A stretch of 64,000 bases of DNA from Escherichia coli (GCF_011045215.1 NZ_CP049201.1), one strand, 5' to 3'; positions 62,344 through 63,048 are shown, counted from the stretch's first letter. Notes: generated by a model from the letters alone, not told the origin. A program made the numbers and translations.

Positions 62344-62914
62344 CTATGGCTGGAGATGGTGGATGTTACCGATAATCAAGAAGCCTTAGATATAAGGCAA
62401 TGTTTTATCTTTCTTTCATACGAAAACCAGTGCTGCCATACTAGCCCTTTTCCTGTGACATCTAAGCGAGCTCATGTTTATCGGGAAGGGTGTTAGATCA
62501 TTGTTAATCATACACAGGTAATTATGCAGCGGTTATGCATAACTTCATTTCGAGCGTGTGATAACGCCAACACAATCACCAGAATTATAAAATAAAATCA
62601 CAAAACCTGAGAACATGTCACATTTTATCACATTAATAATTTTTCTTTATGATTTCATAACTATTTACAGCCTTTTATTAAGCCAAAAAAAGTTAAATTG
62701 CAATTATTGCATAATTATTCGCGCTACAGTTTTTTTACTTTTAAAATCATATAATATATAATCACCTTAAAACAGCAAACTCCACAAAATAATAACAAAT
62801 AGAAATATTTCCACCCAAATAATGATTATCTATTCATGAGCTGACATTATGAAATTAATCATTATTTGATGCAAATAACACAAATTAAAACAAACACCTT
62901 AATATCCATTCTTG

Positions 62915-62930
62915 TGTGAATCTCATCACA
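62915..62930 (+). promoter_or_regulatory. candidate CRP site upstream of the arginine deiminase gene
   Basis: TGTGA-ATCTCA-TCACA read directly, perfect match to both CRP half-sites, about 120 nt upstream of the ATG. Confidence 0.55.
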
Positions 62931-63048
62931 ATAATGTTTATTTTACCGCCTAGTATGAACCACGAAATCAATTGAACTTAGCCGCCATGAAATTAAATAC
63001 ACAACATGGCGCATACCTTTTTATTCTGAAAAAATTAAAGGAATAATT

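Follow-up and report, generated by a model that had tools for sequence, protein, structure and literature searches.

The subject of this report is the AT-rich DNA immediately upstream of arcA, the gene of arginine deiminase (ADI), near the right end of a 64,000-nucleotide stretch of an Escherichia coli genome (GCF_011045215.1, NZ_CP049201.1); the whole stretch is called the window below. It is a conventional multi-input promoter region situated on an already described mobile arc module. The best explanation, which is considered probable, is that a native control region with several inputs was captured together with a class II arcA promoter dependent on the cAMP receptor protein (CRP), and a palindrome within the region is very probably a genuine CRP operator, as judged from its conservation.

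A first-pass annotation had described positions 62350-63048 as an AT-rich leader of about 700 bp with a perfect pair of CRP half-sites upstream of the arginine deiminase gene, and the observation itself is confirmed. The sequence TGTGAATCTCATCACA is read at 62915..62930, the right end at 63048 is exact (the arcA ATG occupies 63049..63051), and the truncated product of the downstream gene scores 435.8 bits against the arginine deiminase family NF002381, above the cut-off of 414. At the left the interval has to be divided, as 62350-62379 belongs to what is left of a truncated tabA gene, a 5' stump on the minus strand. In the sense of messenger RNA the term leader does not hold, the predicted 5' untranslated region (5'UTR) being about 85 nt long and the remainder ancestral tabA-arcA intergenic DNA. 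The features on which the argument turns are as follows.

62380..63048, no strand assigned: divergent tabA-arcA intergenic control region, 669 bp, 30.2% GC, recognised by Enterobacter homology and native synteny
62915..62930 (centre 62922.5), no strand assigned: CRP site TGTGA-ATCTCA-TCACA, recognised by exact match and conservation
62951..62956, plus strand: predicted -10 hexamer TAGTAT (conserved as TAnTAT), at fixed spacing to the CRP block and with T1, A2, T4, A5 and T6 conserved
63049..64000, plus strand: arcA (arginine deiminase), first 317 codons, cut by the window end, NCBIfam NF002381

The probable CRP operator and the predicted arcA promoter

In a pattern search the palindrome was the only exact match to TGTGA-N6-TCACA on either strand of the window, where 0.13 matches are expected (approximately 0.0015 when scaled to 700 bp). 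That it should be a chance match without function in AT-rich DNA is scarcely credible: at least one exact match does appear somewhere in 12 of 100 dinucleotide shuffles of the whole window, but the site falls where the orthologous promoters of Enterobacterales carry the same motif, with the half-sites kept and the spacer free. The comparison covered 80 arcA loci from other species, each scanned over the 900 bp upstream of the gene. The motif [C/T]GTGA-N6-TCAC[A/G], with no more than one mismatch, was found 115-167 bp before the arcA ATG in 27 of the 28 Enterobacterales loci, Mangrovibacter being the exception; the genera with the site are Escherichia, Enterobacter, Kosakonia, Citrobacter, Cedecea, Pseudescherichia, Superficieibacter, Serratia, Erwinia, Rahnella and Tatumella. 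Across these loci the spacer, six bases long, varies freely, and the GTGA and TCAC columns are invariant in a 24-sequence alignment whose background identity is about 50%. No CRP-type site was present at the equivalent position in 52 loci of the Vibrio/Aeromonas/Photobacterium group. The native E. coli allele (ATCC 25922) has TGTGA-AAGTCG-TCACA at -139, although its leader is too diverged for BLAST alignment, and the site is unchanged in the plasmid variant (pIP1206), whose leader carries 15 substitutions. By these comparative data the explanation by chance is effectively refuted already.

The gene had been credited with catabolite-responsive control of its own. As far as the CRP site is concerned this is supported by the invariant half-sites within a drifting spacer and flanks, but CRP as the sole input does not stand, the site being one of several conserved elements.

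In the 24-sequence alignment TAnTAT is conserved 28.5 bp downstream of the CRP site centre, and no conserved -35 element is found. Such an architecture fits a class II CRP-dependent promoter, with CRP at -41.5 and a start which we infer to lie near G62964. CRP could also bind in another geometry, either as class I with a start further downstream or beneath a distal promoter which would leave a long leader containing the site, and this is considered unlikely. The class I variant is exemplified by the -35-like TTGAAC at 62972-62977 (5 of 6 positions of the -35 consensus, in a partly conserved block, GAAATCAATTGA) combined with TAAATA at 62994-62999; the latter, however, is devoid of the essential final T and lies within an unconserved hairpin loop. 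For the distal variant there is a sigma-70-like TTTACT-17-TATAAT at 62734-62762, which agrees with the consensus at 10 of 12 positions. This candidate was rejected because it is not conserved in the relatives; moreover, six promoter-like matches were found where 3.6 are expected from shuffles, which is near chance in such AT-rich DNA. The TAnTAT at class II distance is the only conserved -10-like element.

As a side observation, near-perfect CRP cores such as TGTGATCTGGATCACA occur far upstream, at about -720 from arcA in Aeromonas (L026-L043) and at about -440 in some Vibrio (L054, L059, L078), where they presumably precede an upstream arc gene.

Candidate inputs upstream of the operator

Four further elements upstream of the CRP site are candidates for regulator binding.

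62865..62880 (centre 62872.5), no strand assigned: second Crp/Fnr-type palindrome TTTGATGCAAATAACA with FNR core TTGAT-GCAA-ATAAC, two mismatches to the CRP or the FNR consensus
62821..62838, plus strand: ARG-box-like element B, AATGATTATCTATTCATG, 13 of 16 positions
62782..62797, minus strand: ArcA-P-type box TGTTATTATTTTGTGG, conserved block (a) of the alignment, ACA-N6-TAACA
62706..62723, plus strand: ARG-box-like element A, ATTGCATAATTATTCGCG, 13 of 16 informative consensus positions, candidate for the ArgR-family regulator of the operon or for ArgR

The centre of the second palindrome is placed exactly 50 bp upstream of the CRP centre, and a spacing of 49-50 bp is kept in those relatives for which it was determined, as well as in native E. 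coli; in many genera its right half is a perfect FNR half-site, ATCAA. Positions of -41.5 and -91.5 are known for co-activated promoters from Busby-lab work, galP1-type promoters being of class II and ansB having FNR at -41.5 and CRP at -91.5. Promoters of class II/III likewise show a strong CRP core over the -35 position, a -10 element only and a second Crp/Fnr-family site 50 bp (five helical turns) upstream. In contrast to ansB, the order is reversed here, with CRP proximal and the FNR-like site distal and degenerate, and the arrangement here is a predicted one.

The ArcA-P-type box, named after the regulator and not after the deiminase, is modelled as direct TGTTA repeats 11 bp apart, the second of which is weak in the window copy. 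It is homologous to GTTAATTATTTGTTT, a site predicted for ArcA-P on the reverse strand in Salmonella at a distance of 271 bp upstream of STM4467, and STM4463-STM4467 are down 20-83-fold in a Salmonella arcA mutant grown anaerobically. The ARG-like matches recur in the relatives, at -340 to -360 in many of them, which corresponds to box A, and at -223 to -235 in the case of box B, whose columns TA..ATTCA are invariant in the 24-sequence alignment. In Vibrio fluvialis the arc promoters are activated by an ArgR-family protein through multiple ARG boxes, and a Vibrio ARG consensus has been described (PMC11172107). Tandem ARG boxes 21 bp apart, in the style of E. coli arg operators, were not found by eye beside box B, and what is present are two single boxes about 115 bp apart. 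All of the FNR-like, ArcA-P-type and ARG-like assignments are suggestive only.

The leader of the plasmid variant (pIP1206 9041-9753 against window 62340-63051) differs at 15 of 712 positions, several of them within the FNR-like site, at 62868 and 62875, and within the ARG-like boxes, at 62709, 62721 and 62826, with the CRP site untouched. In view of these changes the chromosomal and plasmid copies may differ in their regulation.

The proposed control can be put as follows; which regulators bind, and in which direction each of them acts, is what we infer from the sites. Transcription of arcA would start near 62964 from a weak sigma-70 promoter with -10 TAGTAT and no usable -35, and cAMP-CRP bound at 62915-62930, centred at -41.5 as in class II, would be needed for its activity, so the operon would be switched on once preferred sugars are exhausted. 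The second Crp/Fnr-type site at about -91.5 would add a further input, the ArcA-P-type box at about -175 would supply low-oxygen input, and the ARG-type boxes at about -135 and -250 would supply arginine input via the ArgR paralogue of the operon (STM4463/RosE type) and/or ArgR. The 5'UTR of about 85 nt would contain a conserved hairpin and a CU tract able to mask the ribosome-binding site.

Several points weigh against this scheme. The -10 hexamer matches 4 of 6 positions; no mapped start was found for arcA or any of its orthologues, STM4467 being absent from the Salmonella transcriptome supplements examined; and the literature searched contained no report of CRP binding or of crp dependence at an enterobacterial ADI promoter. 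The sigma-70-like match at 62734-62762 discussed above counts on the same side, but it is not conserved. The ARG-like (13/16) and FNR-like (8/10) matches are weak and cheap in AT-rich sequence. At 62866-62879 the FNR consensus TTGAT-N4-ATCAA is matched at 8 of 10 positions, with the left half perfect and the right half degenerate here, and in the plasmid variant there are two further substitutions in this site, at 62868 and 62875.

It is the G of GTGA and the C of TCAC, as opposed to TTGA...TCAA, that separate CRP sites from FNR sites. Since these discriminating positions are kept in the proximal palindrome, specificity for CRP rather than FNR is suggested. If FNR or a different Crp/Fnr-family protein were bound there instead, the operon would be under oxygen and not catabolite control, like the arcDABC operon of Pseudomonas with ANR, and this is held to be very unlikely. 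The core TGA-N6-TCA is indeed common to CRP and FNR sites, the Salmonella ADI pathway is induced at low oxygen (according to the summary given in PMC4159846), and the ADI operons of many bacteria are activated anaerobically by Crp/Fnr-family proteins, as reviewed in PMC4813224. Nevertheless, the CRP-specific G and C are kept in all 28 site-bearing loci and TTGA...TCAA occurs in none of them at this position, 62915-62930 scores 7 of 10 as an FNR site, and better candidates for oxygen sensing are situated upstream, namely the ArcA-type box and the -91.5 site with its right half ATCAA in many genera. P. aeruginosa's arcDABC operon and the arc operons of Gram-positive bacteria (under ANR/ArcR together with ArgR/AhrC) follow the same logic, a Crp/Fnr-family site near -41.5 with upstream ARG boxes for arginine induction (PMC4813224). 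In contrast to arcDABC, the proximal site is here of CRP type and not of FNR/ANR type, and the oxygen input apparently comes via ArcA-P and/or the distal site.

Base composition, capture and spread of the module

The strong AT-richness and the numerous A/T runs which had been described are borne out. The GC content is 0.308 for 62350-63048, 0.302 for 62380-63048 and 0.277 for 62500-63048, compared with a window median of 0.51; the interval 62380-63048 is the lowest-GC stretch of 669 bp in the window (fraction of such stretches equally low, 0.0006), and A/T runs of at least five occur at 7.5 per kb in the region against 4.0 per kb window-wide. What cannot be retained is the interpretation of this composition as a sign of acquired, silenced DNA. 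Only the intergenic DNA is AT-rich, the arcA coding part having 51.6% GC and the coding DNA of the module 54.1%, and the native loci are alike, with an intergenic GC content of 31.5% in ATCC 25922 and of 26-38% over the last 500 bp in other genera. Since the AT-richness is confined to the intergenic region and equal in native loci, it is ancestral and no marker of foreign DNA; the low GC therefore reflects densely packed regulatory DNA rather than an origin elsewhere.

H-NS may well bind such DNA. A stronger version of this idea, in which the stretch is mainly a target of xenogeneic silencing, the operon being kept off by an H-NS-type coat and the CRP palindrome being incidental or an anti-silencer, is possible if somewhat doubtful. 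The stretch is the GC minimum of the window (30% vs 51% median) and enriched in A/T runs, the window copy is truly acquired, and the preference of H-NS for such DNA is established knowledge. Against it stand the restriction of AT-richness to the intergenic region between coding DNA of 52-54% GC, the equal AT-richness of native operons, and the presence of discrete conserved blocks on a drifting background, a pattern that argues for specific regulators over bulk silencing. Silencing and a CRP-dependent promoter are, at the same time, mutually compatible.

The left border of the region bears on how the control region was acquired.

62344..62379, minus strand: truncated tabA (yjgK) stump, TTG-IIGNIHHLQP-stop, 12 codons, compared with the Enterobacter TabA start MIAGNIHHLQSW
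62042..62340, minus strand: cdiA-derived pre-toxin (PT-VENN region) DNA travelling with the arc module, recognised by Pfam PT-VENN on a minus-strand frame

In blastn, 62341-63060 is homologous end to end to Enterobacter cloacae (L002; 72% over 731 bp), and the identity to E. asburiae (L003) is 65.5%. The native order in E. asburiae is rraB, argI, tabA on the minus strand, a 675-bp intergenic region and arcA. From this order, the end-to-end homology and the stump it follows that the so-called leader is a complete ancestral divergent intergenic region, captured with the beginning of tabA, and the stump marks, on comparative grounds, the left-hand limit of what was taken from the chromosome of the donor. 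Intact cdiA homology stops at about 62316, which places the junction with the arc-derived DNA between 62316 and 62340; all arc-carrying loci share the sequence from 62042 rightwards, and other cdiA genes match 62190-62316 only. A query spanning the junction was covered at 99% identity or more in 359 genomes, compared with 360 carrying the window-type arcA allele. One shared cdiA::tabA' junction means that essentially all these E. coli copies, chromosomal or plasmid, come from one capture event, in which some 6 kb of DNA, with the tabA stump at one end and a pyrL remnant at the other, would have been excised from an Enterobacter-like chromosome and lodged in an E. coli cdiA gene. The ArcA protein is 97% identical to that of E. 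cloacae and 94-96% identical to its counterparts in Kosakonia and other Enterobacter, compared with 91% for the native protein of E. coli; on these figures the window copy is a xenologue derived from an Enterobacter-like donor.

The remainder of an arc-type operon, which it had been proposed to look for downstream, is present in the near-identical copies. Where 62042-64000 recurs at 99.6-99.9% identity, the genes after arcA are arcC, argF, one for a YfcC-family transporter and one of the ArgR family, and in plasmid records a pyrL remnant and fragments of the insertion sequence IS66 come after the latter. The carbamate kinase, catabolic ornithine carbamoyltransferase and arginine/ornithine exchanger expected of an ADI operon are thereby accounted for. 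The ArgR-like protein matches both Pfam ArgR domains, falls below the NCBIfam ArgR equivalog cut-offs and is 78% identical to the native E. coli version. At a minimum identity of 95%, 62300-64000 was found in 360 of 5426 complete E. coli genomes, at 366 places (67 chromosomal and 299 plasmid). In PLSDB it was found on 255 plasmids, for the most part conjugative and of IncF type, pIP1206 among them. A more sensitive search detected arcA in 952 of the 5426 genomes, 360 with the mobile allele and 593 with a second allele, which has about 79% nucleotide identity and aligns only from 63016 onward. The second allele is represented by ATCC 25922 with the order rraB-argI-tabA(-) / arcA-arcC-argF-yfcC-argR-like / pyrL-pyrB-pyrI (L084 7360-13292). 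An orthologous operon thus occupies a backbone site (argI-tabA / arc / pyrLBI), as in Enterobacter, in about 593 complete genomes, approximately 11% of E. coli, and this is the islet known from Salmonella and uropathogenic E. coli (PMC2328253).

The earlier description of the gene as cargo outside the K-12-type backbone is consequently correct for the window copy, which is absent from that backbone, lies in a serX island and encodes an Enterobacter-like ArcA; the accessory status of its allele is seen in patchy distribution, association with mobile elements and foreign affinity. For the operon as such it does not hold in general, and the finding that the gene is backbone in related genomes, named beforehand as one that would speak against cargo, was made in half: it applies to the orthologous operon in about 593 E. 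coli genomes and in Enterobacter.

Two known systems are closest. The ADI islet of Salmonella, STM4467-STM4463 (arcA-arcC-arcB-antiporter-rosE), has the same gene order with the regulator, an ArgR paralogue, in the last place, and lies, as the native form does, with genes of the argI side to one side and pyrL to the other; the predicted ArcA-type site of STM4467 matches the window box at about -270, and the operon is ArcA-dependent anaerobically. Choi and co-workers in 2012 reportedly found that the STM4463 regulator controls the expression of STM4467. Unlike the islet, the window copy is off the native site, inside a disrupted cdiA in the serX island, and is closer to Enterobacter than to native E. 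coli. The literature searched yielded no published CRP site, either for the Salmonella islet or for the window system. The second system is the arc module of IncF plasmids (pIP1206, pNDM-5-IT and plasmids of sequence types ST131 and ST167). The module, its cdiA::tabA' junction and the CRP site are the same there, and the leader is 98.3-99.0% identical; the window copy differs in being chromosomal, and its variant (at least 99.6% identical to the window) is seen at 67 chromosomal places. The ADI module has been described as an IS66-IS1 module flanked by inverted repeats (PMC7193042). A fitness trade-off, with an advantage in urinary tract infection and a cost in the gut, was reported for the plasmid arc module by Billard-Pomares et al. 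2019, as related by a citing paper.

The window represents E. coli chromosome, with csgG-ycdXYZ-ghrA and then serX, a tRNA-Ser(GGA) gene at 35428-35515, and the 28.5 kb from serX to the window end (35428-64000) constitute a genomic island. The island encodes DUF4942, an Ag43-like autotransporter (43779-46703, minus strand), hsdM-hsdS-darT-darG-hsdR-M48 peptidase, Ail/Lom, a small cdiI-like open reading frame and a PT-VENN CdiA C-terminal remnant. Over 54000-64000 the same arrangement was found in no complete RefSeq E. coli genome at a coverage of 80% or more. The darT-darG toxin-antitoxin pair (54101-55821) lies inside a type I restriction-modification operon (50310-59651), an arrangement which is also seen in O157 and other strains. 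The tabA stump keeps its upstream side, with promoter and ribosome-binding site, which now faces the PT-VENN CdiA-CT remnant (61312-62343) and a cdiI-like open reading frame of 77 amino acids (61082-61315) on the minus strand, and the captured tabA promoter might drive this orphan toxin/immunity pair. In other genomes the arc module splits a disrupted cdiBA locus into two halves (L083). Left of the Ail/Lom gene, in the 59751-60011 area, a 112-bp stretch matches L001 twice in inverted orientation (6008-6119 and 18568-18679), the two copies bracketing IS66/IS110, a cdiA fragment and the arc region; a neighbouring piece of 68 bp matches, inverted, pIP1206 15027-15094, just downstream of the argR-like gene. 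These matches are probably the inverted repeats of the IS66-IS1 ADI module of PMC7193042.

The 5' untranslated region and biological meaning

Between the predicted start and arcA two further features are recognised, and these are the most novel element of the region, outside the claim made earlier. In the relatives (L002-L029) and in L084 they lie at -80 to -5 from arcA.

62981..63012, plus strand: conserved 5'UTR RNA hairpin GC.GCCAUG / CAUGGCGC, recognised by folds and covariation
63016..63046, plus strand: CU-rich tract (63016-63027) and Shine-Dalgarno region with AAGGA at 63038-63042

A hairpin is predicted at the equivalent place in all 29 of 29 loci, ending 35-45 nt before the ATG, and its stem sequences differ: the window has GCCAUG/CAUGGC, Enterobacter GUCAUG/CAUGAC and GCUAUG/CAUAGC, Citrobacter CUGCAA/UUGCAG and Cedecea GAUGCAAA/UUUGCAUC, and still others occur in Serratia, Erwinia and Tatumella. 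A consensus structure did not emerge when RNAalifold was applied to a 21-sequence MAFFT alignment of the 5'UTR, since the register of the hairpins shifts from genus to genus. The structure was judged instead by folding each sequence against control windows and by counting pairs in 11 in-register sequences. The mean z score relative to dinucleotide shuffles is -2.08, with 13 of 29 loci below -2, compared with -0.55 to +0.14 in five intergenic control windows. In the in-register set 83.6% of cells pair and three pairs show compensatory change, one of them with five types; none of 500 shuffles reaches the observed pairing or covariation score, and slid controls pair at 31-46%.

For E. coli, Enterobacter, Kosakonia and Citrobacter, minimum free energy folds pair UUAUUCU of the CU tract with AGGAAUAA, and the predicted mean pairing probability of the Shine-Dalgarno sequence in these four groups is 0.5-0.8; both arms are conserved in sequence, hence no covariation signal is possible for their pairing. 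No Rfam 15 match was obtained in 62350-63048 at E ≤1, and two matches elsewhere are far below gathering scores.

Two other explanations of the leader were rejected. One was a terminator or attenuator, which would require a GC-rich stem with a U run beginning 0-2 nt after it: the scan calls none at the 5'UTR hairpin in the window, L008 or L084, the hairpin loop is 15 nt long and the U tract begins 4-5 nt past the stem. The other was a leader peptide encoded by a 19-codon upstream open reading frame at 62987-63046, which ends 2 nt before the arcA ATG and is regarded as incidental to the CATG stem, from which its ATG derives. Versions of it in frame are present in E. cloacae, E. asburiae and Kosakonia (L005); the frame is broken or absent in L004, L006 and L084, ends in a different frame in L072, and is devoid of a Shine-Dalgarno sequence and of Arg codons.

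A bolder proposal, which is tentative and rather unlikely to be right as a whole, is that the 5'UTR is an undescribed cis-regulatory RNA common to enterobacterial ADI operons, in which a covarying hairpin is combined with a CU tract that follows it or masks the ribosome-binding site. Combined with the sites of CRP, ArcA-P, ArgR and Crp/Fnr type, this RNA would make up a complete control cassette wired to the host, which is now carried on IncF resistance plasmids. The putative RNA element could act as a thermosensor, as an attenuator or as a switch responsive to a small RNA or a protein.

Few metabolic cargo operons are spreading on the IncF plasmids of E. coli lineages that produce extended-spectrum β-lactamases or NDM (such as ST131, ST167 and ST1193), and the arc module is among them. 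Its ancestral control region travels with it intact, comprising a CRP site that is strong and conserved and, probably, inputs of ArcA-P and ArgR type, and this accounts for the ability of a new host's global regulators to read an operon borne on a plasmid. The mechanism is conventional; nevertheless, the expression conditions it predicts, namely absence of glucose, low oxygen and presence of arginine, help to interpret the fitness effects of arc-carrying plasmids.

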